From contig JAHEJY010000018.1 of assembly GCA_024638625.1 (NCBI GenBank), forward strand, positions 6,398 to 30,397: DNA of 24,000 nucleotides. The letters are read 5' to 3'. Source of the DNA: Actinomycetes bacterium. GTDB taxonomy: Bacteria > Actinomycetota > Acidimicrobiia > Spongiisociales > SHLN01. The notes beneath the pieces were generated by a model. That model was not told where the DNA came from and ran no database searches. It saw nothing but the letters and a program-made list of their open reading frames with translations. A program made the translations under genes and the position numbers. Positions 3,599-23,432 of this stretch are shown here, in pieces (within the stretch, counting starts at the first letter, position 1; every line of letters starts with the position of its first letter).

Positions 3599-3780
3599 CT
3601 CCCGGGCGCCGCATCGCACCCGGGGCGCCACCGAATTCTGGGGCCTCTTTCCTCCCTTAGCTCTATTTCCTATATATTCCAGGAAGAATGACCACTATCT
3701 GTGGTAATTAGTCCTTTAGGAAAACACTGTCCCGTCGAAGTATCCCCAACAAACCCTAAGAATATTAGGAGGAGAGGGAT

Positions 3781-3873
3781 ATGCGCCGAATTGTTACGTT
3801 GGCATTCACTGCCGCCACCATGTTGGTTCTTTTCGCGCAGCCTGCGTTCGCAGCTGTGCTCAATATGCTGTAA
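3781..3873 (+). CDS. candidate 30-aa small ORF, signal-peptide-like or single-TM microprotein (MRRIVTLAFTAATMLVLFAQPAFAAVLNML)
   Basis: Below the ORF-track size cutoff. ATG 3781 is preceded by consensus SD AGGAGG at 3767-3772 (8-nt spacer), at the end of a ~41% GC island. The peptide has an RR n-region, a hydrophobic core and an AFA/A cleavage-like motif. TAA 3871-3873 directly abuts the stop of the convergent transporter gene. No homology evidence is available. Confidence 0.4.
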   Translation: MRRIVTLAFTAATMLVLFAQPAFAAVLNML

Positions 3874-4701
3874 TCAGACCGATATGAAGGCGGTTGCCAG
3901 CGCGGCAATTCCGAGTCCGATCCAATGACGCGGAAGTATGACCTCCTTCAAGAACACGGCCGCGAGAATCACAGCGGGTATCGCATACAACGCAGCAAGG
4001 ATCGCGGCAACGCTCAGCGATCCGAGGCGTGTGGCGTAGAGATACGATGTATTGGCCACCACCGAACACATCGAACCGCCTGCGGTCAACCAAAGCGCAG
4101 CCCCCTGCAAACGCAGCGGGCTGCGCTTTGCTATCACGACGCCGGTTCCAACGAGCGAGGCTCCGATGAAGACGCCCACAATCGGCCACAGCCCGGAGCC
4201 TTCAGATACGAAGCCGAGGATCGCAAACTGAATACCAAACCCGGTTCCACTTCCGACGCCATACCAGACCCCGCGAAGATCGAGCTGCTTCCCATCAGAG
4301 GCGACCAACCAGATGGCCGCACCTGCCAACACCGCACCGACGAACGCCAGCGGTGACAAGTCCTCTCCTCTCAGGCCGGCAACTGTCACGGGAATCAGCG
4401 CCGAAACGAGCCCGCTCGCAGGGACAATCGAAGATGCCGGAGCTTTGGTGAAACCGAGGAACAGCACCGTGCCACCTCCTACCGCTCCCGCACCTGCCAC
4501 CAATCCGATGGCGACCGAGCTGACCGAGAAAGCCGGCGTGCCCGAAGTGGCCAGCGCCAGGACAAGCATGCCGGGCAAGGCCATGAAACTGTACCACCAT
4601 GCAACGGTGAACGCGGAGGTCGTTCGGGCCGCCTGCCCGCCAAATACCGATGCACCACCCCAGGCGATCGAAGCTGTAGCAGCCAACGCGAGAGCGACCA
4701 T
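3874..4701 (-). CDS. EamA/DMT-superfamily integral membrane transporter
   Basis: 275 aa, almost entirely hydrophobic with about 10 predicted TM segments. Gly/Ala-rich helices in two similar halves are typical of drug/metabolite transporter (EamA) proteins. ATG at 4701-4699. Confidence 0.72.
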   Translation of the reverse strand: MVALALAATASIAWGGASVFGGQAARTTSAFTVAWWYSFMALPGMLVLALATSGTPAFSVSSVAIGLVAGAGAVGGGTVLFLGFTKAPASSIVPASGLVSALIPVTVAGLRGEDLSPLAFVGAVLAGAAIWLVASDGKQLDLRGVWYGVGSGTGFGIQFAILGFVSEGSGLWPIVGVFIGASLVGTGVVIAKRSPLRLQGAALWLTAGGSMCSVVANTSYLYATRLGSLSVAAILAALYAIPAVILAAVFLKEVILPRHWIGLGIAALATAFISV

Positions 4702-4772
4702 CGGCGAACCCTAACCGGTGCCCGCGGTGCGCCCCTCGTACACTCAGGCCGTCGGCGAAGCAGGGAACCGAT

Positions 4773-5309
4773 ATGGCGCACGACACTGTTGTCAACCACC
4801 GGCATGAGCATGCGAAGGTGGTCCTGACCGGCTTTATGGGCACCGGCAAGACCACGGTCGGTCGGCTGGTCGCGACTCTCATGGATTATGAGTTTGTGGA
4901 CACCGATGAGGTCATCGAATCTCGCCACGGCTCTATTGCTGAGATTTTCGAGCTTCAAGGTCAAGCACGGTTCAGAGAGCTCGAGTCGGGTTTGGCACAA
5001 GAACTGTCCACTTCCACTCGAACCGTGATCGCGACCGGCGGACGGATGATGCTCGACCCTCGAAACGCCGCACTCTTGGCTTCGGACGCTCGCGTATTTT
5101 GTCTGGTGGCGACGCCGACGGAGATTCTCGCACGTGTGGCCGATGGCAAACGACCGCTCCTTGCAGGCGACGATCCGGCCAGCCGCATCGAAGAGCTCCT
5201 CGCGGAGCGTCACGCCGGCTACAGCGAGTTCGAGGCGATCGAAACATCCGGCCGGAGCCCTATCGAGATTGCAGCCGAAATCGTGAGGCTGATCGAAGAT
5301 CGTGGCTAA
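4773..5309 (+). CDS. aroK: shikimate kinase
   Basis: Walker A GFMGTGKTTVGR is followed by FVDTD, then ..FRELE.. and ..IATGGR.., which is the canonical AroK layout. Size is 178 aa. Confidence 0.9.
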   Translation: MAHDTVVNHRHEHAKVVLTGFMGTGKTTVGRLVATLMDYEFVDTDEVIESRHGSIAEIFELQGQARFRELESGLAQELSTSTRTVIATGGRMMLDPRNAALLASDARVFCLVATPTEILARVADGKRPLLAGDDPASRIEELLAERHAGYSEFEAIETSGRSPIEIAAEIVRLIEDRG

Positions 5310-7945
5310 TCCATCGCTGTGATCGCGTTGGGATTCCGACGTAGTCCAAGTCGTTTGAAGAAGTCCACAATCAGAAACGGGACAATCTGCAGGACGAGGA
5401 TCACAATCCAGTCGACCACGTCGATGGGGACTGTCGCAAAGAGCGTGTTGCCGATCGGCAAGTAGACAACCCCCAGTTGCAGAAGGAGAGAGAGTGTGAT
5501 GGCCACCAGGAGCAATCGGTTGTCAAAGAACCCTCTCTTCCAGACTGATGTTCCCTGCGCTCGTACGTTGAAGACGTGCAGCATCTGCACTCCCACCAGG
5601 GCACTGAAGCCAATGGTCCGCACGTGCTCCCATTCCACGTCGCGGAGGAAATGTCCGTAGGCATAGGCCGAGAGCGCCCCAGCTGCGAGAATCGCCCCTT
5701 GCCACAGAATCCGAACCTGGTGGGCAGGTCCCAAAATGTCGCGGCGCCGGTCCGGGTCGCGATCCATGAGGCCTGCCACTGGAGGGTCCATGCCAAGGGC
5801 AATAGCGGGCAAACCATCCGTGACCAGGTTGATCCACAGAATCTGAACGGCCAGCAGCGGTTCGCCCAGGCCGCCAAAGACAAGGAACCCGAACACCATG
5901 ACCAGCACCTCACTGACGTTGGCTGACAGCAAGAAGTAGACGACCTTCTTGAGATTCGAGAAGATGCCTCGCCCCTCTTCGATCGCCGCGACGATCGATG
6001 CGAAATTGTCGTCGGCAAGCACCATCGATGACGCCTCCTTCGAGACAGCTGTACCGCTCCCCATCGCCACGCCGATGTCGGCTGCCTTCAACGCCGGTGC
6101 GTCGTTGACGCCGTCGCCGGTCATCGCCACGATTCCTCCATGGTGCTGCCACGCTCGCACCAGTTTCACCTTGTCAACCGGATCGACCCGCGCAAACACG
6201 CCATAGTCGTTGACCCGGGAAGCCAGTTCGTCCTCTTCGACCGATCGCAGCTCCGCTCCCCCCATGACCCCGCGGCGTTCGTTGGTCAGGCCGAGTTCCG
6301 CCGCAATGGCGCGGGCAGTCACTTCGTGGTCGCCGGTCACCATGACGACCTCCAATCCCGCCCGTTCCGCCGCCGTCACCGCGGCGGGGACCTCCGGTCG
6401 AATCTCATCACTCATACCAACGACTGCAACCAGGGTGAGATCGGATTCTGCAGCATCCAGGTTGACCGGCCTGTCGTCGAACATTCGATACGCAAACGCC
6501 AACGTCCTGAGACCGGCTCCTGCGAATTCAGCCGCTTCGGCTTTTGCCCGTCGGACGAGGTCGTCATCGATGGGTTGTTGTCCGGTCGAGGCCTCGACGT
6601 GCCCGGAAAGCTCGATAATGGTTTCGGGGGCTCCCTTGACCGCGAGGAGATAACCCTCCTTCGTGTGGTGAAGTGTGGCCATTCGCTTGCGGCGCGAATC
6701 GAAACCCAACTCGTCGACCCGGGGATAGTCGCTTCGGATCTCATTCACGTTGAGAACAATGGGATCGACGGATTTGAGAAGGGCCGTTTCCGTCGGATCA
6801 CCGATGAAGCCTCGCCCGGATGGTTGCCCATCGTTGCAGAGGGCCGCAATCAATCCATACAGGTGAATACGACGCTCCGAACCGTGAGCCTCCTCCAGGG
6901 CCAACGAAGCTCCCGCGAAGCCAATGCGCTGCACGCTCATCTCGTTGCGCGTCAAGGTTCCCGTCTTGTCGGTACAGATGACCGAGGCCGACCCGAGAGC
7001 CTCGACGGCGGTGAGTTTTCTGATAATGGCATTTCGGCCTGCCATTCGTTGCACGCCCCGTGCCAGGGTGATCGTGTTGACAGCCGGCAGCCCTTCCGGG
7101 ATAGCAGCCACCGCCAGGGCAACCGCCGTGAGAAACATCGACTCGACGCTGTTTCCCCGGGCAAGGCCGAGCACGAAGATCAAGACGGCAATGCCCAGCG
7201 CCAGCACGGCTATCGATCTTCCAACCCGATCCATTTCGAGCGATAGAGGGGTGCGCGGCTCCTCCTCAACGAGCAGGTCTGCGATCTTGCCCATCTCTGT
7301 GTCGCGGCCTGTGAAGACAACCGCTGCCCGGCCTCTCCCATTTGCAACCACCGTTCCCGCAAAGGCCAGCGCGAGCCGATCCGCTGTCCCACTCTCAATC
7401 GCTGTCGGTTCGATTTGCTTTGAAACCGGAAAACTCTCACCGGTAAGGGCCGCTTCATCTACTTCAAGCCGCACCAATTCGATCAAACGAACGTCGGCCG
7501 GAACCCGATCACCGGCTTCAAGACTGACGATGTCACCGGGCACCAAGTCGACGGCTGCCAATGTGACCATCTGACCGTCGCGAAACACACGCGCTTCCGG
7601 GGCGCTCATCTCCTTGAGTTCGCCTAGGGCCGATTCTGCTCTGACCTCCTGGGTATAACCGATGACGGCATTGAGAACCACGATGGCCAGGATCACCCCC
7701 GTATCAACCCATTCGTTCAAAATGAATCCCGAAATGATGCCGGCAGCCAGCAACACCCACACGAGAACGTCCTTGAACTGGCGTATCAGAATCGACAAAC
7801 GAGAGGGGCCCGAGGTGGCCGAAAGCTCATTCGGTCCGAATTTGGCAAGCCGTTCGGCGGCGACGACCGATGACAATCCCGCCGTTGGATCGACCTCGAG
7901 CCGTTGTAAAACCTCGCCCACCTCAATGGCATGCCAGTTGTTCAT
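5306..7945 (-). CDS. cation-transporting P-type ATPase, P2 (SERCA/CtpF-like, Ca2+-type)
   Basis: Motifs: DKTGTLT phosphorylation site, TGES-type actuator (LTGES), IPEGLPAV in TM4, MVTGD, TGDGVNDAPALK hinge, and an N-terminal Cation_ATPase_N-like segment (WHAIEVGEVLQRLEVDPTAGLS). I prefer the Met at 7945 (MNNWHAIEV) over the ORF-track start at 8023, because it forms an ATGA overlap with the hpt stop. Confidence 0.92.
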   Translation of the reverse strand: MNNWHAIEVGEVLQRLEVDPTAGLSSVVAAERLAKFGPNELSATSGPSRLSILIRQFKDVLVWVLLAAGIISGFILNEWVDTGVILAIVVLNAVIGYTQEVRAESALGELKEMSAPEARVFRDGQMVTLAAVDLVPGDIVSLEAGDRVPADVRLIELVRLEVDEAALTGESFPVSKQIEPTAIESGTADRLALAFAGTVVANGRGRAAVVFTGRDTEMGKIADLLVEEEPRTPLSLEMDRVGRSIAVLALGIAVLIFVLGLARGNSVESMFLTAVALAVAAIPEGLPAVNTITLARGVQRMAGRNAIIRKLTAVEALGSASVICTDKTGTLTRNEMSVQRIGFAGASLALEEAHGSERRIHLYGLIAALCNDGQPSGRGFIGDPTETALLKSVDPIVLNVNEIRSDYPRVDELGFDSRRKRMATLHHTKEGYLLAVKGAPETIIELSGHVEASTGQQPIDDDLVRRAKAEAAEFAGAGLRTLAFAYRMFDDRPVNLDAAESDLTLVAVVGMSDEIRPEVPAAVTAAERAGLEVVMVTGDHEVTARAIAAELGLTNERRGVMGGAELRSVEEDELASRVNDYGVFARVDPVDKVKLVRAWQHHGGIVAMTGDGVNDAPALKAADIGVAMGSGTAVSKEASSMVLADDNFASIVAAIEEGRGIFSNLKKVVYFLLSANVSEVLVMVFGFLVFGGLGEPLLAVQILWINLVTDGLPAIALGMDPPVAGLMDRDPDRRRDILGPAHQVRILWQGAILAAGALSAYAYGHFLRDVEWEHVRTIGFSALVGVQMLHVFNVRAQGTSVWKRGFFDNRLLLVAITLSLLLQLGVVYLPIGNTLFATVPIDVVDWIVILVLQIVPFLIVDFFKRLGLRRNPNAITAMD

Positions 7946-8490
7946 GGCTCCGGATGTACCACGCAGATGTCGGGGAGCGTTCGATAACGTTCCGCCCAGT
8001 CGAGCCCATAGCCGACTACCCATACGTCCGGGATATCAAAGCCGAGATAGTCGACCGGAACCTCGACCTCGGCCCGTTCTGGCTTGCGAACCAGGGCACA
8101 GGTCCGCAGCGACGCAGGCCCTCTGGCAGCAAGCAAGCGCTGAAGATACGCGATCGTGTGCCCCGTATCGACAATGTCTTCGACGAGCAGAACGTGGCTC
8201 CCATATACCCGATGTCTGATGTCCATGATGAGGCGCACATCACCCGGGTGCGCCGTGCTCTCGGCATCGCCGTAGCTGCTCACCGCTATGAATTCGATCC
8301 GGTGGGGCACAGTGAGCCGTCGAGACAGATCGGCTAGGAAGATGAAAGACCCTTTGAGGACTCCGATGAGAACCAGATCGTCCACTCCGGCGTATTGGAC
8401 ATCGATCTCTGCTGCCAATTCATCCACGCGGGCGGCGATACGAGCGGCTGAGATGAGAGGCTCCGGAGCGGGATTTGCGGGTCCGGTCAT
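7942..8490 (-). CDS. hpt: hypoxanthine(-guanine) phosphoribosyltransferase
   Basis: 182 aa. PRPP-binding motif VLLVEDIVDTGHT. VLKGSFIFLADL and EFIAVSSYG are typical of Hpt. ATGA overlaps occur at both ends (8487-8490 and 7942-7945). Confidence 0.92.
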   Translation of the reverse strand: MTGPANPAPEPLISAARIAARVDELAAEIDVQYAGVDDLVLIGVLKGSFIFLADLSRRLTVPHRIEFIAVSSYGDAESTAHPGDVRLIMDIRHRVYGSHVLLVEDIVDTGHTIAYLQRLLAARGPASLRTCALVRKPERAEVEVPVDYLGFDIPDVWVVGYGLDWAERYRTLPDICVVHPEP

Positions 8491-9752
8491 ATCAACAAAG
8501 CCGAACCGAGGAGCAAGCCGATGATCAGCGCCAGAGCCGGCAGCACCACTTTCTTGAGCGCCCGCGAGGCCACCGCCATCACGATTCCGCCCTTGACCAG
8601 CGTGTTGGTCGCTGCCGCCAATGCGATGGCAGCTCCTGCTGTGGCATCCTCGACCGGACCATCTCCTCGGGACAGCTCAGCCAACGACAGGGTTATCGCG
8701 TCAACGTCTGCTATACCAGATATCACGGCTGAAGCGTATACCCCGGCTTCACCCAGCCACTCCGAGGCAGCCTTGGCCACGACCAGAACGACCCCGTATA
8801 TCAGCCCGAATTCAATGGCGGGTCGGAGTCGGAAAGGGTTTGAGAAGGTTCCAGTTTCTTCACCCGCATCAGCCGTACCGCGTCGGAAGTACAGGAACAG
8901 CGCTACGGCCAGTCCGGAGACTGCGCCGACCGCCATCGGAAACCAGATCTCCGACAGCAGTTCGAAATTGACGGCCGCAACTTCGATGATGACCCTGACG
9001 AACATGATTGTCCAGGCAAGCAGCAACGCCAACGCCAGTGGTCGCTCGAGCCCTGAACTGTTCTGGCTGCGCTCGGACATTGATATGGTCACGGCCGTGG
9101 ACGACACCAGTCCGCCCAACAGTCCGGTGAGACCGGTTCCCCGCCGGGCGCCGACGGCTTGAATCAAGACGTACCCGATGAATGACAGTCCGGAGATGAA
9201 TACAACCATCAGACCCACATTGAATGGGCTGGTGGCGTTCCACGGTGAAGGACCATACGTCTCGGTCGGGAGCAGGGGAAGAATGAGCGCAGCCAGCACT
9301 GCGAATTTGACCGTGGCGTAAATGTCTTCGCTATCGATCCGGGATGCGATCATGCGCGTTTGCGGCTTGATGGCCAGCAGCGTCATCGTTGCTACCCCGG
9401 CGGCCGCCGCTACGACCAGGTCGCCTGCGAACGCCAGACCGCCTGTCAGAAACACCACAATCGCGGCCAGTTCCGTTGTCTGGCCGATTTCTCCCTCCTG
9501 AATACCGGCTTGATAGGCCAGCGCAACGAATCCCCCGGCTACCAGGAGGGCCGCGACAAATATCCACGGACTACCCAGGAGCTCGCTCCCATACGCCGCC
9601 AGCCCTCCGGCCAAGCCCAGCAAAGAAAACGTGCGTGAGCCCGCGAACATCTCCTCATCGCCTTCGCGCTTCGCATACTCACGCTGAAGTCCAACAAGGA
9701 GGCCGATCCCAAGACCGGCGCCCAATCGCCCAAAAACTTCAGTGAGTTCCAT
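8487..9752 (-). CDS. MgtC/SapB-family membrane protein with DUF4010-type C-terminal extension
   Basis: 421 aa polytopic membrane protein. The N-terminus LGIGLLVGLQREYAKR..FAGSRTFSLLGLAGG matches the MgtC-family start motif. The remainder is multi-TM, as in DUF4010 proteins. Confidence 0.78.
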   Translation of the reverse strand: MELTEVFGRLGAGLGIGLLVGLQREYAKREGDEEMFAGSRTFSLLGLAGGLAAYGSELLGSPWIFVAALLVAGGFVALAYQAGIQEGEIGQTTELAAIVVFLTGGLAFAGDLVVAAAAGVATMTLLAIKPQTRMIASRIDSEDIYATVKFAVLAALILPLLPTETYGPSPWNATSPFNVGLMVVFISGLSFIGYVLIQAVGARRGTGLTGLLGGLVSSTAVTISMSERSQNSSGLERPLALALLLAWTIMFVRVIIEVAAVNFELLSEIWFPMAVGAVSGLAVALFLYFRRGTADAGEETGTFSNPFRLRPAIEFGLIYGVVLVVAKAASEWLGEAGVYASAVISGIADVDAITLSLAELSRGDGPVEDATAGAAIALAAATNTLVKGGIVMAVASRALKKVVLPALALIIGLLLGSALLI

Positions 9753-10453: not shown

Positions 10454-10553
10454 GATCACCGTTCGTGCGCGGTGGACGGACGGACCCCGATCTTGCCTTG
10501 GACCAAGGTGACTGAGCAGTGGTCGGTCCTGACTTGTGGGATCATGGCTCTTC

Positions 10554-11714
10554 ATGAGTTCGCTCCTACAGCCCTTCACGGGCTACATACCGGCACCGGA
10601 ATTCGCCCATCGCGTCGTAGGGCCTCCCGTCTCGACGCTATCGCCTGACCAACGGGAGGAAGCACGGGCGGACCCGCTCAGTTTCAGACACGTGGCGGGC
10701 AAAGGGGCAGGAACAACCGTGAAGGAGGCTCGGGAATGGCTGCGAACGTGCAACCAGAACGGTGTTCTGAAGCAGGTGGGTCCTGCGGTCTTCATATATC
10801 GACTCACCAAGGGCAGCAACGCGGTCACAGGTGTGATCGCCGAGGTGTCGATCACTGCATACGACTCCGGCCTCATAAAGCGCCACGAAACCACCATCAG
10901 CAGGACCGAGCGAAAGATGGCGAAGTACATGCACACCACACGGGTGTACGGAAACCCGGTCGCCCTCGCGCATCGCCCTAGCCCGTCCATCTCAGCAACG
11001 ATCTTGGCCGGATCGTCGCGCCACGCCGACTACTCATTTACGACAACCGAAGGGTCAACGCACGAGCTATGGGTAATAGAAGGCTCCTCGGCGATCGAAC
11101 TCTGCAGCGAATTCCCGGGGGAGGTCTATATCACCGACGGGCATCACAGGCTCGCCGCCGCATCGAACATCGCTTCGCGAGAGCGCCGCATGAATCCATA
11201 CCTGCCCGCTGGTCTGTTTTCGTCGGATGAGCTCTACGTGAAATCGTTCGCTCGCTGCATTGTCGACCCGACCATAGATATCGGGGCCACAATCGATCGC
11301 CTGCGGAATGATCATGAGCTAGAGGCCGTGGACGACGATGATATTCGCCCGGGATCTCGACATGAGCTCGGCGTGAAAATCGGAACCGAGACTTTCCGAT
11401 TGCGGATACGGGCCTCTGTCATACCCGATGATGTGTACCACTCACTCGATGTCAAGCTCCTCCAGGATCTCATTCTCGAGCCAGTTTTTGGCATATCCAA
11501 CCCCCGCAACGACGGTCGCTTGCACTTCCTCGCCGACCAGACGGCCGACGGAATATCCGAAATCACGTGCGATGCATATTTTTTGCCGTTTCCTGCGTCG
11601 GTGGGCGATGTCATGGCGGTAGCCGATTCGGGCCGGGCGATGCCACCGAAGTCGACCCTCTTCACACCCAAACTCCCCAGTGGTCTCGTAATTCGCCAAT
11701 TAGACGATTACTAG
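10554..11714 (+). CDS. DUF1015 (COG4198) family protein
   Basis: The N-terminus MSSLLQPF..Y..P..V.GPPVSTLSPDQ fits the DUF1015 start pattern, and the family-typical ITDGHHRLAA motif is present. The ORF track starts at GTG 10536. I prefer ATG 10554 from the family N-terminus. Confidence 0.8.
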   Translation: MSSLLQPFTGYIPAPEFAHRVVGPPVSTLSPDQREEARADPLSFRHVAGKGAGTTVKEAREWLRTCNQNGVLKQVGPAVFIYRLTKGSNAVTGVIAEVSITAYDSGLIKRHETTISRTERKMAKYMHTTRVYGNPVALAHRPSPSISATILAGSSRHADYSFTTTEGSTHELWVIEGSSAIELCSEFPGEVYITDGHHRLAAASNIASRERRMNPYLPAGLFSSDELYVKSFARCIVDPTIDIGATIDRLRNDHELEAVDDDDIRPGSRHELGVKIGTETFRLRIRASVIPDDVYHSLDVKLLQDLILEPVFGISNPRNDGRLHFLADQTADGISEITCDAYFLPFPASVGDVMAVADSGRAMPPKSTLFTPKLPSGLVIRQLDDY

Positions 11715-12610
11715 GGAGCGCTCATCCGATCGACGAACGTGTCGGGATCGATTTGAAACGAAACCAGGAAGTCTTCTAGTTCTTCAGTGGGAGCCTTATC
11801 GAGGTCTTCGATGTAGATCGAAGTCGACGCATCAATCGTATACGTCCCGACTTCGATGAGGAGCCGATCGGCCAGAATGTCACCGCTTTCACTCACCGTC
11901 GCGATCACACGCACAGCCCTGTCTGCACCCGGGACGACCACTTCGCTGTACCAGTTCTCCGGATAGTCGTAGGCGAACTCCTCGAACTGCTGAAGCTGCT
12001 CCGCAAGCTTTTGCTCTATCAGATTCCCGTCAAACACGAAGGCCGAGTATGACGTATAGAAAGCGCCATCCAAGAATCCTTCAACCGGATCGCGCGGCGT
12101 TGTTCTCTCGCTGAATGTCCAGGTCCCGGTACGAGGTGTTCGGAACGTCACACCCGGGATCTGCAGATCGAGCCTGCCTCCGCCATTCGCGAGGAACTCC
12201 GCGGCGACATGGGCGCAACGATCGCTGTTCGGCAGCTCCACCATCACCCACCAATACCTGGTTCCGTCATAGGACAACGTTGCTGGATATGTGCCGAGCA
12301 CCGTGCCGACATCGACCTGGCCAAGCTCTTCGCTGTCCAACGACGGTGCGCCCCGCAGCCGAACCCAGTTCTCTACCCCGGATACGGTCGCATCGGCCAC
12401 AGGCTGGCCGGCCGGACAATCGACCCCCGCCAGAACAACCGTGGTCGTGGACGACGATGTAGTCGAGGACGTCGTTGTTGTAGAAGGGTCAACGGCGGTA
12501 GTCGAAGTCGAAGATTCGCCGGTAGCTTCGGTGGTATCGGATGCCGCCTCGCCGCAGGCCGAAATGACCAATGCAATCAACAGTGTCGTTGCCCATAGCC
12601 GTAGCCGCAT
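11711..12610 (-). CDS. secreted lipoprotein with Ser/Thr-rich linker, function unknown
   Basis: Signal peptide MRLRLWATTLLIALVISAC with lipobox I-S-A-C. This is followed by a TTEATGESSTSTT..TTTTSSTTSSSTTT linker and a globular domain of about 220 aa (a possible SH3b-like stretch WVRLRGAPSLDSEELGQVDVGTVL). Its stop overlaps the DUF1015 stop as CTAG. Confidence 0.7.
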   Translation of the reverse strand: MRLRLWATTLLIALVISACGEAASDTTEATGESSTSTTAVDPSTTTTSSTTSSSTTTVVLAGVDCPAGQPVADATVSGVENWVRLRGAPSLDSEELGQVDVGTVLGTYPATLSYDGTRYWWVMVELPNSDRCAHVAAEFLANGGGRLDLQIPGVTFRTPRTGTWTFSERTTPRDPVEGFLDGAFYTSYSAFVFDGNLIEQKLAEQLQQFEEFAYDYPENWYSEVVVPGADRAVRVIATVSESGDILADRLLIEVGTYTIDASTSIYIEDLDKAPTEELEDFLVSFQIDPDTFVDRMSAP

Positions 12611-12790: not shown

Positions 12791-14761
12791 ATGACAACCC
12801 TCCCAGACCCTGACGACCTCGTGTTCGACCTGGCCGACATGGATTCAACCGTGTCCCCCGGGGCCGACTTCTATCAGTTCGTGAACGGAGGATGGTTGGC
12901 TGCCAATCCTGTCCCGGACGATTATTCGCGGTGGGCGGCATTCGATGAGGTGCGAGTTGCCAATGAGGATTTGCTCCACGGGCTATTCCAGGCAGCTGCA
13001 GAAGGCCAGGGCGAGCCCGGGACACCAGCCCACTGGTGTGGAGAGTTCTACCGGGCGGGCATGGACACGACGCGGATCGAGGCCGAAGGCCTCGCTCCGG
13101 TCCAGCCGCTCCTGGACAGCCTGGAGTCCATCGCGAGCATCTCCGATCTGAGCCACGTAGCTTCGGATCTGATCCCGCTGGGCCTCGCTCTCCCGATTGG
13201 TGGCGGCGTAGTTCCTGACTTCGATGACAGTCGCCGACATCTCCTCTATCTCGGTTCAGGCGGAATGGGGCTCCCGGAGCGCGATTATTACTTCCGCGAC
13301 GATGAGCAGTCCGAGCGGCTCCGCGATCAGTACCGGACACATATCGAAGCAATGCTCGATCTCAGCGGCTATCCCGATCCCGGGGAGCGAGCTGTCCAGG
13401 TTGTGCGTTTCGAGTCGGCGCTCGCCGAGCAGGCCTATACCGCGGCCCAGCAACGGGACATGGATCTGGTGCTCAATCGCAGGGCCGTCTCCGAGCTCGA
13501 TGGCCTCATGCCGAATTTTGGACTCGTGGGCTTCATGGCCCGTTTCGGAGCAACCGGAATCAGCGCAGTAAACGTGGCCAATCCGAGCTTTTTTGCCGCC
13601 GCCGACGAACTCCTGACCGGTGCCGAGATCGAAACCATACGAGCCTGGTCACGCTGGCATCTTCTTTCGAGCGTTGCATCGTCTCTTCCACGTCCGTTCG
13701 AGGATGAGGCATTTCGCTTCTACGGTCAGATATTGGGGGGCCAAAAGGAACAGCGAGAGCGTTGGAAGCGTGTATTGAGATCGGCATCAGCCGACCTCGG
13801 CCAGCTGGTGGCGCAGCTCTATGTGGCCGAGGCCTTCAGTCCGGAGGCCAAAGCGAGAGCTCAAGAAATGGTCGCCCACATCATCGAGTCGATGCGCCGC
13901 GCAATCAGGGGACTCGACTGGATGTCAGAAGAGACGAAACGGGCGGCGGTCAGCAAGCTGGAAGGATTCGTGGCCAAACTCGGCTACCCCGATGAGTGGC
14001 GCGACTATTCCGCATTGGATCTCGGCGACGGACCTTATGTAAATGTCCGGCTCGCCGCGCGCAGATTCGAATTCGATCGGCGTCTAAATGAACTCCACGA
14101 GCCGGTCAACCCGGAAGAATGGGAAATGGGGGCCCACGAAGTCAACGCCTACTACCACCCACTGCGCAACGAGATCGTCTTTCCGGCCGGCATCCTCCAA
14201 CCACCATTCTTCCAGGCAGACGCGGACGATGCCGTGAACTATGGAGGCATCGGGGCCGTGATCGGACACGAAATTACCCACGGATTTGATGACATGGGCA
14301 GCCGCTTTGATGCAAACGGGAACTTCGCAAACTGGTGGACCGAACAAGATCGGGAAGAATTCGAGAGGCGGGCCCAGGTGCTCGTTGATCAGTTTTCCCG
14401 ATACGAACCGCTCGCCGGCCTCTTCGTCAATGGCGATTTGACCCTGGGTGAGAACATCGCCGACCTGGGTGGCGTAACGATCGCGTACGAGGCTCTCCAG
14501 GAGGCCCTCGATCGGAACAACCGCGATCTCGTCGGCGGGCTGACACCCGAACAGAGATTCTTCCTCGCCTACGCGCGGGTCTGGCGGACAAACTCTACCG
14601 ACGAGCATTTGCGGCTTTCGGTCCAAACAGACCCGCATTCCCCCGGCGAATACCGCTGCAACGGACCACTAGGCAATCTGGAAGCCTTCGCTCGAGCATT
14701 CAACCTCTCGAATGACGCCACGATCATCAGGCCCGAGGACGAACGAGCAAAGGTCTGGTAG
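12791..14761 (+). CDS. M13-family zinc metallopeptidase (neprilysin/PepO/Zmp1-like), no signal peptide
   Basis: 656 aa. HEXXH is VIGHEITHGFD, with downstream GENIADLGG and NAYY motifs. The N-terminus has DFYQFVNGGWL, typical of M13. No hydrophobic N-terminal segment. Confidence 0.92.
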   Translation: MTTLPDPDDLVFDLADMDSTVSPGADFYQFVNGGWLAANPVPDDYSRWAAFDEVRVANEDLLHGLFQAAAEGQGEPGTPAHWCGEFYRAGMDTTRIEAEGLAPVQPLLDSLESIASISDLSHVASDLIPLGLALPIGGGVVPDFDDSRRHLLYLGSGGMGLPERDYYFRDDEQSERLRDQYRTHIEAMLDLSGYPDPGERAVQVVRFESALAEQAYTAAQQRDMDLVLNRRAVSELDGLMPNFGLVGFMARFGATGISAVNVANPSFFAAADELLTGAEIETIRAWSRWHLLSSVASSLPRPFEDEAFRFYGQILGGQKEQRERWKRVLRSASADLGQLVAQLYVAEAFSPEAKARAQEMVAHIIESMRRAIRGLDWMSEETKRAAVSKLEGFVAKLGYPDEWRDYSALDLGDGPYVNVRLAARRFEFDRRLNELHEPVNPEEWEMGAHEVNAYYHPLRNEIVFPAGILQPPFFQADADDAVNYGGIGAVIGHEITHGFDDMGSRFDANGNFANWWTEQDREEFERRAQVLVDQFSRYEPLAGLFVNGDLTLGENIADLGGVTIAYEALQEALDRNNRDLVGGLTPEQRFFLAYARVWRTNSTDEHLRLSVQTDPHSPGEYRCNGPLGNLEAFARAFNLSNDATIIRPEDERAKVW

Positions 14762-14787
14762 CGATAAGCAAAGGTCTGGTAGCAATA
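14746..14787. repeat. 21-bp tandem duplication spanning the M13 peptidase stop codon
   Basis: AGCAAAGGTCTGGTAGCGATA (14746-14766) and AGCAAAGGTCTGGTAGCAATA (14767-14787), 20 of 21 identical. Each copy carries the last codons AKVW plus TAG. Confidence 0.9.
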
Positions 14788-14807
14788 ATCGTCATCCGCA
14801 GCCGGAT

Positions 14808-14855: not shown

Positions 14856-15596
14856 ATGAAGACTGACCGCCTGAGAATGTACAACCTCGTGATGGGAGGA
14901 CTTCACGCCGTTCAGGGCGTGCTCGTCGTGCTGTTGTCTAATGGCTTTTCCCTGCCGGTAACCGCCACACTTGCCGAGGGTCCTCCCGGTACCCCGCTTT
15001 CCGATCCGGCCACGCTGTTCGAAATTCCGGTTGGAGCCGGCGTCGCCCTATTTCTGTTTCTATCGGCGTTGTTTCATTGGATCATCATCTCGCCACCATT
15101 CTTTGACCGATACCTCGAAGGGCTGACCCGCCATCGGAATTATTTCCGGTGGGTCGAATATTCACTTTCCTCGTCGGTGATGATCATTCTCATCGCCACG
15201 CTGGTAGGCATCAGCGACATCGCAGCGCTCGTTGCCCTTTTCGGTGTGAACGCATCGATGATCTTCTTCGGAGCGGTGCAGGAAAAGTACGAGGAGCCGG
15301 GGGGATCACTGCTTCCATTCTGGCTCGGCACCATTGCCGGCATAACCCCCTGGATCGCCATCACGATCTACCTCTCTACCCCGCTCTCGGATTCCAATCC
15401 TCCGGGTTTCGTCTACGGCATATTCTTCTCCCTCTTCTTCTTCTTCAACACGTTCGCCATCAACCAGTGGCTGCAATACCGCCAGATCGGCAAATGGAGT
15501 GACTATCTCTACGGGGAACGGACCTACATCCTCTTGAGCCTGCTCGCCAAGTCGGCTCTGGCCTGGCAGGTGTTCGCCGGCACACTCGCGGCCTGA
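14856..15596 (+). CDS. heliorhodopsin (7-TM retinal protein, inverted topology family)
   Basis: 246 aa. Collinear by eye with heliorhodopsin 48C12 as I remember it. Matching motifs: PPGT, LFH, FRWVEYSLSSSVM (Glu101, nt 15156-15158), FGVNASMI, LPFW, PGFVYGI, FFFNTFA..QWLQY, and KWSDYLYGERTYILLSLLAKSALAWQVFAGTL (Lys232, nt 15549-15551, the putative Schiff-base lysine). Confidence 0.9.
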   Translation: MKTDRLRMYNLVMGGLHAVQGVLVVLLSNGFSLPVTATLAEGPPGTPLSDPATLFEIPVGAGVALFLFLSALFHWIIISPPFFDRYLEGLTRHRNYFRWVEYSLSSSVMIILIATLVGISDIAALVALFGVNASMIFFGAVQEKYEEPGGSLLPFWLGTIAGITPWIAITIYLSTPLSDSNPPGFVYGIFFSLFFFFNTFAINQWLQYRQIGKWSDYLYGERTYILLSLLAKSALAWQVFAGTLAA

Positions 15597-16060
15597 TGGT
15601 CGAGTCCGTGTGGGACTACCCCCGTCCACCGTTGGCCGAGCCAAGCGACCGGTTGATCGAGATTGATTTCGACGGTGAAACCATCGTGGCAACCCGGGAC
15701 TCAATTCGGATACTCGAAACGAGCCATCCGCCGGTGTATTACCTGCCCGTATCCGCCTTCGCTCCTGGCGTCCTCCGGCCCAGCGACCCTGGCACGTTCT
15801 GCGAGTTCAAAGGCAGTGCGTCGTACTTCGATGTCGTCGGCGACGGCCGAATCGAGGCGGCCGCGGCCTGGGGTTATCCACGACCGGCATCGGGCTACGA
15901 GTCACTTGCTGGTCGGGTTGCCCTCTACCCGGCACGCATGGACGCCTGTCGGGTGGATGGCGAGTCTGTCATGGCCCAGGAGGGCGATTTCTATGGCGGC
16001 TGGATCACATCTGACATCAGTGGACCTTTCAAAGGGGCCCCGGGCACGCTCGGATGGTGA
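15596..16060 (+). CDS. DUF427 domain protein (long ~155-aa form)
   Basis: DUF427 core pattern: ETSHPPVYYLP....L.PSD..T.CEFKGSASYFDV......AAWGYPRP...Y..LAGRVALYP. The C-terminal FYGGWIT..ISGPFKGAPGTLGW tail is seen in long-form members. Its ATG (15596-15598) overlaps the heliorhodopsin TGA (15594-15596). Confidence 0.85.
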   Translation: MVESVWDYPRPPLAEPSDRLIEIDFDGETIVATRDSIRILETSHPPVYYLPVSAFAPGVLRPSDPGTFCEFKGSASYFDVVGDGRIEAAAAWGYPRPASGYESLAGRVALYPARMDACRVDGESVMAQEGDFYGGWITSDISGPFKGAPGTLGW

Positions 16061-17953: not shown

Positions 17954-18418
17954 ATGTCGAGCGTTACAGAAACTATCGATATCGATGTCGATGTAAGAAC
18001 CGCGTATAACCAGTGGACCCAGTTCGAGACATTTCCCGAATTCATGGAGGGCGTCGAATACGTACGCCAGGTGGACGACATAACCAACGAATGGAAAGTT
18101 GACATCGGCGGAGTCGAGCGTGAATTCAAGACCGTCATTGCCGAGCAGGAGCCAGACATGCGCATCGCATGGACCACCGTCGAAGGTCCGCCGCACAAGG
18201 GAGTCGTGACCACCCATCGTCTTGATGACGGCAAATCCAGAGTGACGCTACAAATGGACTATGACCCGCAAGGTTTTGTTGAAACCCTCGGTGATACGTT
18301 CGGAATCGTGGCATCCCGGGTTCGCGGTGACCTCGAACGCTTCAAGGAATTTATCGAAGAGCGCGGTAGCGCCACCGGTGGTTGGCGAGGGACCGTCGAA
18401 CAGACAGCGACCGAGTAG
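17954..18418 (+). CDS. SRPBCC (cyclase/dehydrase, START-like) family protein
   Basis: 154 aa. I..DVDVRTAYNQWTQFE.FPEFMEGV....V.D....W is the typical start of actinobacterial Polyketide_cyc2/SRPBCC proteins. Strong SD AAGGAG at 17938-17943. Confidence 0.85.
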   Translation: MSSVTETIDIDVDVRTAYNQWTQFETFPEFMEGVEYVRQVDDITNEWKVDIGGVEREFKTVIAEQEPDMRIAWTTVEGPPHKGVVTTHRLDDGKSRVTLQMDYDPQGFVETLGDTFGIVASRVRGDLERFKEFIEERGSATGGWRGTVEQTATE

Positions 18419-20302: not shown

Positions 20303-21679
20303 ATGCCCTATCGAACGATCATCGAACCTTTTCGCATCCACACCGTCCAGGCAATCGACCTTCCCACGCTTCCCCAACGTACTGCTGCCATTCAGCGAGC
20401 CGGCTACAACCTTTTTGGGCTCCATGCCGACGAGGTGATCATCGACTTGCTCACCGATTCGGGTACCGGAGCTATGTCATCTCGCCAATGGGCCGGGATG
20501 ATGGTCGGAGATGAGTCCTACGCAGGCAGTCGCTCGTATTATCGGTTCCGAGATGTGATCAAGGACATCACCGGGTTTTCCGAGGTCATCCCGACCCACC
20601 AAGGCAGGGCAGCCGAGAAAATCCTGTTCACGACGATCGTGGACGAAGGCCAGGTCGTACCCAACAACACCCACTTCGATACCACACGCGCGAATGTCGA
20701 GTATCAAAACGCCGAAGCGCGAGACCTCATCACCCCGATAGGACGCGACCCCGCTGCCGAGCATCCCTTCAAAGGCAACATGGACGTTGAGGCACTCGTC
20801 GAGCTCATCGAACAGGTCGGTCCCGAGCGCGTGCCGATCGTGATGGTCACCGTCACCAATAATTCAGGCGGCGGACAGCCGGTCTCCATGGCGAACCTTC
20901 GTTCCGTGCGCGAAGTGTGCGATCGGTATCGCATCCCCTTCTTTCTCGACGCCTGTCGGTTCGCCGAGAATGCATGGTTCATAAAACAGAGGGAGGAGGG
21001 TTACGCAGACAAGACGCCGAAGGAAATCGCACAAGAGATGTTCGCGCTGGCCGACGGCGCCACGATGTCGGCCAAGAAAGATGGACTCTCGAACATCGGA
21101 GGTTTCCTCGCTATGAACGACGGTGTCCTGGCACAGGAATGCCGCAACCTGTTGATCCTCACCGAGGGGTTTCCCACGTACGGTGGGCTGGCGGGATACG
21201 ACCTCGAGGCGATTGCGCAAGGGCTAACCGAAGTGTTGCAGGAGGAATACCTGCAGTACCGGATTCGATCGACCGCCTATCTGGCAGACAAAGTCGGTGC
21301 GGCAGGCGTTCCGATCGTTCGGCCGCCGGGCGGTCATGCGGTCTATCTCGATGCCAAAGCGTTCCTGCCCCATATTCCCCCCGAGCACTATCCGGCTCAA
21401 TCGCTGGCGATCGAGCTCTATCTCGAAGGCGGTGTACGAGGAGTCGAGATCGGATCAGTCATGTTCGGCAGGCCGCAACCGGACGGGTCCGAGCTTCCAG
21501 CCCCGATGGAACTCGTGCGCCTGGCGGTGCCAAGGCGAACGTACACCCAATCCCATATCGACTATGTGGGCGAAGTCGTGATCGCAGTCGCTGATCGATC
21601 AGAGCAACTGGGCGGGTACCGCATCGTCGACCAGGCGCCGTGGCTGCGCCATTTCACGGCCACATTCGAGCCCCAATAA
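20303..21679 (+). CDS. tnaA: tryptophanase-family PLP beta-eliminating lyase (tryptophanase / tyrosine phenol-lyase)
   Basis: EPFRI....., IDLLTDSGTGAMS, GDESYAGSRSYY, PTHQGRAAE, GGQPVSMANL, ARFAENAWFIKQRE, the PLP-lysine motif MSAKKDGLSNIGGFL, and EGFPTYGGL. There are more TnaA-like than TPL-like positions, but substrate cannot be settled by eye. Confidence 0.88.
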   Translation: MPYRTIIEPFRIHTVQAIDLPTLPQRTAAIQRAGYNLFGLHADEVIIDLLTDSGTGAMSSRQWAGMMVGDESYAGSRSYYRFRDVIKDITGFSEVIPTHQGRAAEKILFTTIVDEGQVVPNNTHFDTTRANVEYQNAEARDLITPIGRDPAAEHPFKGNMDVEALVELIEQVGPERVPIVMVTVTNNSGGGQPVSMANLRSVREVCDRYRIPFFLDACRFAENAWFIKQREEGYADKTPKEIAQEMFALADGATMSAKKDGLSNIGGFLAMNDGVLAQECRNLLILTEGFPTYGGLAGYDLEAIAQGLTEVLQEEYLQYRIRSTAYLADKVGAAGVPIVRPPGGHAVYLDAKAFLPHIPPEHYPAQSLAIELYLEGGVRGVEIGSVMFGRPQPDGSELPAPMELVRLAVPRRTYTQSHIDYVGEVVIAVADRSEQLGGYRIVDQAPWLRHFTATFEPQ

Positions 21680-21780: not shown

Positions 21781-21915
21781 CGCCGCGTAGCGTGACTAGA
21801 GTTGGTCACGGAGCGGGAGTTCCGGACACGCAGAGCATTGGCGGGGATCTGCAAACGGCCATTAACAGGGCCAGACCGGAAGATGCCTAAGGGCAGGGAC
21901 GAAAGAGGGAAAGCA

Positions 21916-22776
21916 GTGGGACGGGCGGCAGCGAACCAGGCGGCAGCGAACCAGGCGGCAGCGAACCAGGCGGCAGCGGCACGAAACACAGGGAAGTCCG
22001 CGACGGCAGGGCAATCAGCGAGATCCCGTGCAGCCGGAGACGATGAGGTGTCCTCGTCCACGGTCGAGTCCGCATCATGCGACTCAACCCATGCTGTCGA
22101 GCTGGCTGCTTATCGGACCGCACTGTCAGCAATGGCTTTGAAGCTCTCGCGCGCCGTGGATGACGAGCGAACGCGAATCGCGCGAGGTCTGCACGATGAC
22201 TTGGGCCAAACCCTCGTGGCCGCACAGCTACGTCTTGCGGAGCTGAAACGAGGCGGCACCGAACGCGAGATTCGTTCCATCATTCAGCATGTGAACGATC
22301 TCGTCGGTGAAGCTGTCTCCTCGTCGAGGTCACTTACGTTCGAACTGATGACACCGCTCATGCCCGAACTCGGAATCGAGAATGAGCTGAGACACATCAC
22401 CGCAAGGATCGCCAAGCGCCACGACTTCGGGTTCCGCTTCGAATGTGATGCGCTGCCTAAGCCAATGGGCCGAGAAGAAGCAGAGACATTGCTCCGTGCC
22501 GTTCGTGAACTGCTCATCAATGTGGGCAAACACGCCAGGGCCGACACGGCATCCGTGACCATCATCGGAAGGGGAGCAAAGGCGGAGGTCAGTGTTCGGG
22601 ACGACGGTATCGGGTTCGCTACCGAACAAGAGCGCGAGCCTCATGCCACTGGCTTCGGGTTGTTGATCATCCGGGAACGGCTCCGGGAAGTGGGCGGCGA
22701 CATGGTGATCGACTCCAGCCCGGGTGCGGGCACCGAGGTCGTACTGACCATCCCACTGTTACAGGAGCAAACATGA
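21916..22776 (+). CDS. soluble HisKA_3-type sensor histidine kinase lacking TM and recognisable input domain
   Basis: H-box ERTRIARGLHDDLGQTL. HATPase_c motifs: ELLINVGKHA, DDGIGF, GFGLLIIRERL. The N-terminal ~90 aa are low-complexity (AAANQ x3). The ORF track starts at TTG 21802. GTG 21916 has SD GAGGG at 21905-21909, and ATG 21883 is another option. Confidence 0.85.
   Translation: MGRAAANQAAANQAAANQAAAARNTGKSATAGQSARSRAAGDDEVSSSTVESASCDSTHAVELAAYRTALSAMALKLSRAVDDERTRIARGLHDDLGQTLVAAQLRLAELKRGGTEREIRSIIQHVNDLVGEAVSSSRSLTFELMTPLMPELGIENELRHITARIAKRHDFGFRFECDALPKPMGREEAETLLRAVRELLINVGKHARADTASVTIIGRGAKAEVSVRDDGIGFATEQEREPHATGFGLLIIRERLREVGGDMVIDSSPGAGTEVVLTIPLLQEQT
21925..21978. repeat. perfect 15-bp tandem repeat, 3.6 copies (GCGGCAGCGAACCAG), in frame as AAANQ
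   Basis: Identical units at 21925-21939, 21940-21954 and 21955-21969, plus a partial 9-nt copy at 21970-21978. Confidence 0.95.
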
Positions 22777-23432
22777 TGGGGACCGTTCGAGTTCTTGTGG
22801 TGGACGACCACTCCATTGTGCGCGAAGGACTTCGTTCGCTGTTGGAGAAAGAATCCGATATCACGGTGGTAGCTGAAGCACCGGACGGAACGTCAGCACT
22901 CAGCGCAGCGCTGGAGCACCAGCCCGACGTGGTCATGATGGACGTTTCCATGCCGGGCATGAACGGCATCGAGGCAACCAGGCGTGTCACCAGCCTGGTT
23001 CCCGACGCAAGGGTCGTGTGCTTGTCGCTTCACGCCGATCCTCACATAGTCTCGTCAATGCTCGAAGCCGGCGCCTCTGGTTATGTGGTCAAATCGGCCG
23101 ATCTCATCGAATTGGCCACGGCGGTGAGAACGGTGGCGGCAGCTCAGACCTATCTGAGCCCGGCAATCGCGGGCGGGATCGTGCGCGATCATTTGGCCCG
23201 GCGAGCCTCGTTGCCCTCCGAGCCCCGGCTGACCGATCGTGAACGCGAGGTGCTCCAGCTGATCGCCGAAGGCAACGGCACCGGCGAGATCGCCGGACGA
23301 TTGTTCATCAGTGCCAAGACAGTCAGCACCCATAGAGAAAACATCATGCGAAAACTCAACCTCCACAACGTTGTGGCTCTCACAAAATACGCAATCCGTC
23401 AGGGGATCTCGACCGCCGAGCCCGACTTGTAA
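22773..23432 (+). CDS. NarL/FixJ-family response regulator (REC + LuxR-type HTH)
   Basis: VRVLVVDDH...., the MDVSMPGMNG phospho-acceptor region, and the C-terminal LTDREREVLQLIAEGNGTGEIAGRLFISAKTVSTHRENIMRKL. ATGA overlap with the kinase stop (22773-22776). Confidence 0.93.
   Translation: MMGTVRVLVVDDHSIVREGLRSLLEKESDITVVAEAPDGTSALSAALEHQPDVVMMDVSMPGMNGIEATRRVTSLVPDARVVCLSLHADPHIVSSMLEAGASGYVVKSADLIELATAVRTVAAAQTYLSPAIAGGIVRDHLARRASLPSEPRLTDREREVLQLIAEGNGTGEIAGRLFISAKTVSTHRENIMRKLNLHNVVALTKYAIRQGISTAEPDL

Follow-up and report, generated by a model that had tools for sequence, protein, structure and literature searches.

The heliorhodopsin gene and its family assignment

The stretch of DNA analyzed here (24,000 nucleotides, positions 6,398 to 30,397 of contig JAHEJY010000018.1 in assembly GCA_024638625.1; hereinafter, the window) contains a gene whose product is very probably a functional 48C12-subfamily heliorhodopsin of an uncultured, monoderm bacterium of the Acidimicrobiia (Actinomycetota). 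The gene and the codons of four residues of the predicted chromophore site, all compared with 48C12, are the following:

14856..15596, plus strand: heliorhodopsin gene of the 48C12 type (subfamily 1), assigned from the open reading frame (ORF), Pfam, NCBIfam and 61% identity to 48C12
14904..14906, plus strand: codon CAC of H17 (48C12 H23), Schiff-base cavity, from the alignment; invariant in an alignment of 19 homologues
15075..15077, plus strand: codon CAT of H74 (48C12 H80), Schiff-base cavity, from the alignment; invariant in the same 19 homologues
15156..15158, plus strand: codon GAA of E101 (48C12 E107), predicted Schiff-base counterion, from the alignment; invariant in the same 19 homologues
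15549..15551, plus strand: codon AAG of K232 (48C12 K241), predicted retinal Schiff-base lysine, from the alignment to 6su3 and a codon check; invariant in the same 19 homologues

The uninterrupted ORF starts with ATG, encodes 246 amino acids (aa) and ends with TGA; no in-frame start is found upstream of position 14856. The predicted protein matches the Pfam profile PF18761 (Heliorhodopsin) from end to end (model positions 1-242 of 242, 336.2 bits against a cut-off of 26.7 bits, E 1.2e-100) and the NCBIfam equivalog NF038020, “heliorhodopsin HeR”, with 331.2 bits against a cut-off of 100. These full-length matches bear out the first-pass annotation, which had recognized a 246-aa heliorhodopsin in this ORF and had proposed a profile search as a check. 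A comparison with solved structures identifies bacterial 48C12 as the best match (6su3, 6uh3 and 9ljj, E ~8e-89), followed by the archaeal TaHeR from a Thermoplasmatales archaeon (6is6, E 8e-59) and the eukaryotic Cv06 from Chromera velia (9vfc, E 9e-43). The latter two proteins share the fold family but are far more distant from the window protein and represent other subfamilies and domains of life.

The alignment of 19 homologues (65-75% identity) contains 97 invariant columns, the key residues among them. The comparison with the orthologue from the Acidimicrobiia metagenome-assembled genome (MAG) contig L003 (89% identical at the amino-acid level and 80% at the nucleotide level) yields a ratio of nonsynonymous to synonymous substitution rates (dN/dS) of ~0.04, an approximate value with dS near saturation. 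The G+C content at third codon positions (GC3) is 0.725, and that of the neighboring genes is 0.63-0.73. The gene at 14856..15596 is an intact, selectively constrained heliorhodopsin gene of full length. It is scarcely credible that it is a decaying or non-functional relic, as might be suggested by the in-frame stop in the heliorhodopsin gene of a relative, L132 (see below), and by the lack of retinal genes nearby: the frame is intact, the family model is fully covered, the key residues are present, and dN/dS is low.

Chromophore site and comparison with 48C12

48C12 comes from an actinobacterial fosmid from Lake Kinneret and is represented by several structures (PDB 6su3, 6su4 and 6uh3). In a global alignment of the window protein to residues 11-253 of 48C12, 61% of the 240 aligned positions are identical, and the only two indels, of one and two residues, are located in the DE and EF loops; the N-terminus of the window protein is six residues shorter. 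In ungapped blocks of this alignment, K232, E101, H17 and H74 coincide with K241, E107, H23 and H80 of 48C12, as the first-pass annotation had claimed; the motifs and residue numbers that it quoted are correct and the codons have been located. Neither the lysine nor the glutamate falls outside the Schiff-base and counterion positions, the displacement which that annotation had named as grounds for abandoning its proposal.

The comparison was extended to 45 further positions named as important by Kovalev et al. 2020 (PMC7049168), 44 of which are identical, the exception being the conservative replacement of K218 with R209. The residues that stabilize the Schiff base in 48C12 (S237, S76 and S111) are retained as S228, S70 and S105, such that E101 is the single glutamate counterion and S228 takes the place of the second aspartate of type-1 rhodopsins. 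The cavity residues N16, Y92, N101, R104, Y108 and E230 correspond to N10, Y86, N95, R98, Y102 and E221. Equally conserved, in 48C12 numbering, are the hydrophobic barrier (L12, L96, L227), the Glu149 region (E149, Q216, Y226, W105, Q213), the polar clusters (Q26/S242/W246, Q247/S201 and S112/S113/N138/W173), the retinal pocket (F72, M115, M141, I142, F206, N207, I170, F203), the dimer residues Y179 and D127, and P40 of the AB loop. Thus, with 44 of the 45 positions identical, the protein belongs, judging from its residues, to Kovalev subfamily 1, and it shares with 48C12 the same cavity, pocket, Glu149 cluster and polar clusters. Apart from the N-terminus and K218, the notable difference is at the lateral fenestration, where C166 of 48C12 is replaced by T159; the host class and the gene neighborhood differ as well. 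On every criterion that can be applied to a sequence, the protein is a heliorhodopsin, and likewise a member of the 48C12 subfamily.

Two further properties can be read from the alignment. The basic residues of the cytoplasmic side of 48C12 (R91, K218, K222, R231) correspond to R85, R209, K213 and R222, and the N-terminus carries three basic residues and one acidic residue; both patterns serve only as sequence proxies for the inverted topology that is typical of the family. The color-tuning positions A240 and Q213 of 48C12 are retained as A231 and Q204, and the GPPG loop as G42-P43-P44-G45; these features are discussed by Kim et al. (PMC7807009). They group the protein with the heliorhodopsins of the >550 nm group, so that maximal absorption close to 550 nm can reasonably be predicted.

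The subfamily assignment bears on a further hypothesis, that of a proton transporter driven or gated by light and similar to the viral V2HeR3. Proton transport is known in some heliorhodopsins (PMC9448325), but the transporting ones belong to the mostly viral subfamily 2, the members of which lack the fenestration motif and differ in the retinal pocket and in the extracellular half. In the window protein, by contrast, the pocket is that of subfamily 1, the F155/G162/F197 motif is present, 44 of the 45 signature positions agree with subfamily 1, and the extracellular half is fully hydrophobic, as implied by the 48C12 identity; 48C12 itself is described as non-transporting (PMC7049168). Transport is, therefore, very improbable.

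The fenestration is also the basis of a different proposal, compatible with the function favored here, namely that the protein is mainly, as suggested for heliorhodopsins at large, a two-chromophore harvester in which an exogenous xanthophyll bound at the lateral fenestration serves as a second antenna. The residues concerned are:

15318..15458, plus strand: residues of the fenestration and the proposed carotenoid site, F155, T159, G162, F197, N198 and A201 (48C12 F162, C166, G169, F206, N207 and A210), motif taken from preprint 10.1101/2025.11.27.691015

The proposed motif is retained, with the opposing aromatic residues F155 and F197, G162, the small residues T159 and A201, and N198; no carotenoid synthesis genes were found in the 24-kb window, and the host is a monoderm, judging from the closest relatives and the genome that shares its synteny, which are MAGs of Acidimicrobiia (Actinomycetota). 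However, the proposal comes from the preprint 10.1101/2025.11.27.691015, is built on docking and sequence motifs, and stops short of demonstrating carotenoid binding for 48C12-type proteins. Because, according to the same preprint, 91% of heliorhodopsins carry the motif, its presence here says little. Furthermore, the fenestration of 48C12 is made tighter by I170 and F203 (Kovalev et al., PMC7049168), both of which are retained as I163 and F194. An antenna role of this kind appears unlikely.

Proposed function

By analogy with the family, the functional 48C12-type heliorhodopsin would sit in the membrane with a cytoplasmic N-terminus and would bind all-trans-retinal as a Schiff base at K232, with E101 as the counterion. 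Green light, probably of ~550 nm, would be absorbed and would isomerize the retinal, whereupon the Schiff-base proton would move to an internal cavity lined by histidines and water rather than across the membrane. The photocycle is expected to be slow, with a long-lived intermediate. By analogy with three bacterial heliorhodopsins that have known roles, this long-lived photoproduct would most likely act, by way of the cytoplasmic loops, on a partner protein and alter its activity. The retinal would most likely come from carotenoid cleavage encoded elsewhere in the genome or from uptake.

The three model proteins and their partners are AbHeR with glutamine synthetase, TfHeR with photolyase, and OcHeR with the ABC transporter OmrDE; in each case the heliorhodopsin is reported to regulate a partner that is encoded next to it (PMC9529153, PMC9769723, PMC11109279). 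They belong to the same family as the window protein, presumably share the slow photocycle with it, and provide the model for signaling. Unlike their loci, the window contains no adjacent gene for a glutamine synthetase, a photolyase or an ABC transporter.

Several observations weigh against the proposed function. The predicted retinal binding, absorption maximum, photocycle and absence of transport are all extrapolations from 48C12. Of the ten recurrent classes of heliorhodopsin neighbors described by Cho et al. 2024, not one is represented next to the gene in the window; in particular, NAD+ synthetase, MerR, TerC, SDR, alpha/beta hydrolase, DUF2177 and DUF2238 genes are all missing next to it. 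The surroundings of related genes were surveyed by tblastn with every protein of the window as query, against the loci of 80 heliorhodopsins (61-89% identity) from species-representative genomes; the genes for helix-turn-helix (HTH)/B12-binding and fasciclin proteins that flank many of these heliorhodopsins are not detected in the window (tblastn, E <= 1e-3). Given the absence of these genes and of the recurrent neighbor classes, the step involving a regulated partner has no candidate backed by conservation.

The overlapping DUF427 gene

The gene immediately downstream of the heliorhodopsin gene encodes a possible partner:

15596..16060, plus strand: gene for a 154-aa DUF427 protein (PF04248, beta-tent fold); Pfam E 9.5e-27, PDB 3djm E 2.5e-11

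DUF427 is a domain of unknown function with a beta-tent fold (PMC4287342), and the GC3 of this gene, 0.703, shows no compositional anomaly. Its ATG overlaps the TGA of the heliorhodopsin gene by one base (TGATG), which raises the possibility that a translationally coupled DUF427 protein is bound or regulated by the light-activated heliorhodopsin. This overlap is the only mildly unusual feature of the gene, and the first-pass annotation did not mention it. The same TGATG junction, followed by the same gene of the aldehyde dehydrogenase (ALDH) superfamily, recurs in L132, where the heliorhodopsin, DUF427 and ALDH-like proteins are 81%, 69% and 70% identical to those of the window, respectively; elsewhere, heliorhodopsins regulate proteins of their own operon (PMC9529153, PMC9769723, PMC11109279).

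The comparative evidence, however, makes such a partnership rather improbable. In L003, the closest syntenic genome, with a heliorhodopsin 89% identical to that of the window, there is no DUF427 gene, and the end of the heliorhodopsin gene at 6741 is separated from the start of the ALDH-like gene at 6814 by a gap of 72 bp. The 79 other heliorhodopsin loci contain no DUF427 gene within 6 kb, nor do four further contexts of 72-75% identical heliorhodopsins, which are all unlike each other and unlike the window. Conversely, no heliorhodopsin is encoded in any of 49 metagenomic loci with DUF427 proteins 50-66% identical to that of the window, 39 of which include at least 800 bp of upstream sequence. 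In L132, the heliorhodopsin gene contains an in-frame stop whereas the DUF427 gene is intact. DUF427 is not among the neighbor classes of Cho et al. 2024, and no literature linking heliorhodopsin and DUF427 was found.

Because only L132 repeats the junction while L003 and the other loci lack DUF427, the pairing of the two genes is limited to a narrow sub-lineage, and the closest syntenic relative can dispense with it. DUF427 was accordingly rejected as a conserved partner: apart from the window and its duplicate in Logan (L001), the pairing was found only in L132. What remains is the conjecture that, in a narrow sub-lineage of Acidimicrobiia, a DUF427 protein coupled in translation to the heliorhodopsin was acquired as its light-regulated partner. 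This idea is kept in play by the retention of the TGATG junction in two diverged genomes, but is not favored, because the closest syntenic genome and the other heliorhodopsin and DUF427 loci lack the pairing; we consider it a long shot. A link between DUF427 and regulation of glutamine synthetase, which would have paralleled the binding of this enzyme by a heliorhodopsin, turned out to be a false lead, the literature match being to DUF4278.

The L132 locus (ENA ERZ23497113, scaffold_4939) deserves a separate comment. An in-frame TAA at positions ~414-416, at about codon 39 of its heliorhodopsin gene, causes the gene caller to split the gene into products of 38 aa and 195 aa, with the overlapping DUF427 gene remaining whole. 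This stop is either an assembly error or the mark of a recent pseudogene.

Genomic context and retinal supply

Pfam scans of all large ORFs in the 24-kb window, supplemented by other comparisons where indicated, identify the following genes in addition to those described above:

35-3598, plus strand: 1187-aa regulator with BTAD, AAA_16 ATPase, multiple TPR and C-terminal HTH/DUF1670-like domains
3874-4701, minus strand: EamA transporter
4773-5309, plus strand: shikimate kinase
5306-8023, minus strand: P-type ATPase
7942-8490, minus strand: phosphoribosyltransferase
8487-9752, minus strand: MgtC/DUF4010 protein
10536-11714, plus strand: DUF1015 protein
11711-12610, minus strand: lipoprotein-like ORF of ~299 aa; no Pfam family, with a signal peptide, a lipobox-like LVISAC and a Ser/Thr-rich linker
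12791..14761, plus strand: M13 (PepO-like) metallopeptidase, 94 bp before the heliorhodopsin gene; PF05649 and PF01431, 81% identical orthologue in L003
16082..17839, plus strand: divergent gene of the ALDH superfamily, 585 aa, 21 bp after the DUF427 gene; partial (central) match to PF00171 with 50 bits, PDB 8yen E 4e-9
17954..18418, plus strand: gene for a 154-aa SRPBCC/polyketide-cyclase-like protein with a lipid-binding fold; PF03364 E 4.8e-21, 90% identical orthologue in L003
18569-20206, minus strand: alpha-amylase
20303-21679, plus strand: beta-eliminating lyase
21802..23432, plus strand: pair of genes for a HisKA_3 histidine kinase and a LuxR-type response regulator, 6.2 kb downstream of the heliorhodopsin gene
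23602 onward, plus strand: a further receiver-domain gene

No transposase, integrase or phage domains are detected by Pfam in the window, the G+C content is even (0.56-0.62), and ten of the window genes are syntenic with L003, the only syntenic contig among the 80 loci. Together with the typical GC3 of the heliorhodopsin gene, these features agree with the non-mobile context proposed in the first-pass annotation; its description of the neighbors as housekeeping genes is loose, considering that they include the M13 peptidase, DUF427, the ALDH-like protein, the SRPBCC protein and the alpha-amylase. No tRNAs or Rfam families are present in the 24 kb, and promoter- and terminator-like sites occur at or below the expectation from shuffled sequence.

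The absence of carotenoid and retinal synthesis genes from the 24 kb, which that annotation had also pointed out, is confirmed by the Pfam scans of all large ORFs, in which no CrtB, CrtI, CrtY, Blh or carotenoid oxygenase domains are found; permissive Pfam scans of the ~299-aa, 123-aa and 128-aa ORFs reveal no hidden retinal genes either. Given that, among 381 heliorhodopsin-only genomes, a single one is reported to have the full de novo retinal pathway (Bulzu et al. preprint), the lack of such genes at the locus is unremarkable.

Several neighboring genes were considered as partners and rejected. The ALDH-like gene follows the heliorhodopsin gene in L003 (72%) and L132 (70%), that is, in this sub-lineage only, and all matches of its product to NCBIfam subfamilies are far below the cut-off, so that, judging by its sequence matches, the protein represents an uncharacterized long ALDH-like lineage. 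A retinal-related role of the ALDH-like or SRPBCC proteins was dismissed on the grounds that these genes are found beside heliorhodopsin only in L003 and L132 and, for the ALDH-like protein, that no characterized subfamily is matched. Kinases are reported within 10 kb of heliorhodopsins (Bulzu et al. preprint), but the HisKA_3/LuxR-type pair shows no conserved co-occurrence across heliorhodopsin loci and was rejected as a signaling partner.

Three other features of the window are worth recording. The regulator at 35-3598, located 11 kb upstream of the heliorhodopsin gene, has the architecture of a SARP/LuxR-like “large ATP-binding regulator”. The ORF at 11711-12610 is likely to be a real gene, given its 66% identical counterpart in L003, and probably encodes a secreted lipoprotein, as its signal peptide and lipobox-like motif suggest. 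At the 3' end of the M13 peptidase gene, positions 14747-14788 contain a tandem duplication of 21 bp, GCAAAGGTCTGGTAGCGATAA and then GCAAAGGTCTGGTAGCAATAA, that takes in the final four codons of this gene together with its stop (…AKVW*); the 3' end of the gene is thus repeated just downstream.

Relatives and turnover of the gene neighborhood

The identical protein (P0001) is already present in NCBI and in a Logan assembly, and >7,700 database proteins match it at E <= 1e-20, many of them labeled “heliorhodopsin HeR [Acidimicrobiia bacterium]”. In the genome collection, Acidimicrobiia MAGs provide the best matches, ahead of other Actinomycetota and of Chloroflexota. Acidimicrobiia heliorhodopsins have been described previously (clusters C2, C6 and C7, Bulzu et al. 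preprint); those from MAGs are 66-89% identical to the window protein and have the same length and host class, whereas the neighborhood differs nearly everywhere, with the flanks shared only with L003 and the DUF427 junction only with L132.

A gene encoding an HTH_17 domain and two B12-binding domains, the architecture of CarH/LitR-like photoregulators, occurs in 28 of the 80 heliorhodopsin loci, mostly directly downstream of the heliorhodopsin gene; a gene with a fasciclin domain lies directly upstream in 24 of the 80, and 23 contain both. These loci come mostly from Chloroflexia MAGs and in some cases from Acidimicrobiia. Examples of the arrangement, given as fasciclin / heliorhodopsin / HTH_17-B12 genes, are:

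L026: 5462-5863 / 6001-6732 / 6806-7624
L020: 4879-5868 / 6001-6732 / 6806-7618
L009: 704-1696 / 1845-2567 / 4593-5456

No paper on heliorhodopsin with fasciclin or CarH was found among those indexed; in Cho et al. 2024, the only neighbor class of this kind is the “MerR family regulator”. In yet another context, that of P0011 (L135, positions 425-5622, and L136), a 75% identical heliorhodopsin is encoded between genes for a MacB-type ABC transporter (ABC_tran and MacB_PCD/FtsX) and another ABC ATPase. These loci resemble the published ABC-transporter-linked group and illustrate how freely the neighborhood changes among close relatives.

Implications

Known since 2018, heliorhodopsins abound in Actinomycetota, the Acidimicrobiia among them, and several of their crystal structures have been solved. 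The window gene is of an already known, ordinary kind that standard annotation names automatically, given that the exact protein has been deposited and that its host group, its residue pattern and the lack of retinal genes nearby have all been described. It adds to subfamily 1 one more sequence, in which the pocket is the same as in 48C12, and has little significance beyond correct annotation. The question that matters for the family is the cellular role of heliorhodopsins and, because the neighborhood is not conserved, the locus does not make this role more testable. Should the partnership with DUF427 nevertheless prove true, it would provide the first functional handle on both DUF427 and this clade of heliorhodopsins. 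The DUF427 overlap and the arrangement of fasciclin, heliorhodopsin and B12-binding regulator genes are modest leads toward partners or regulation of heliorhodopsins.

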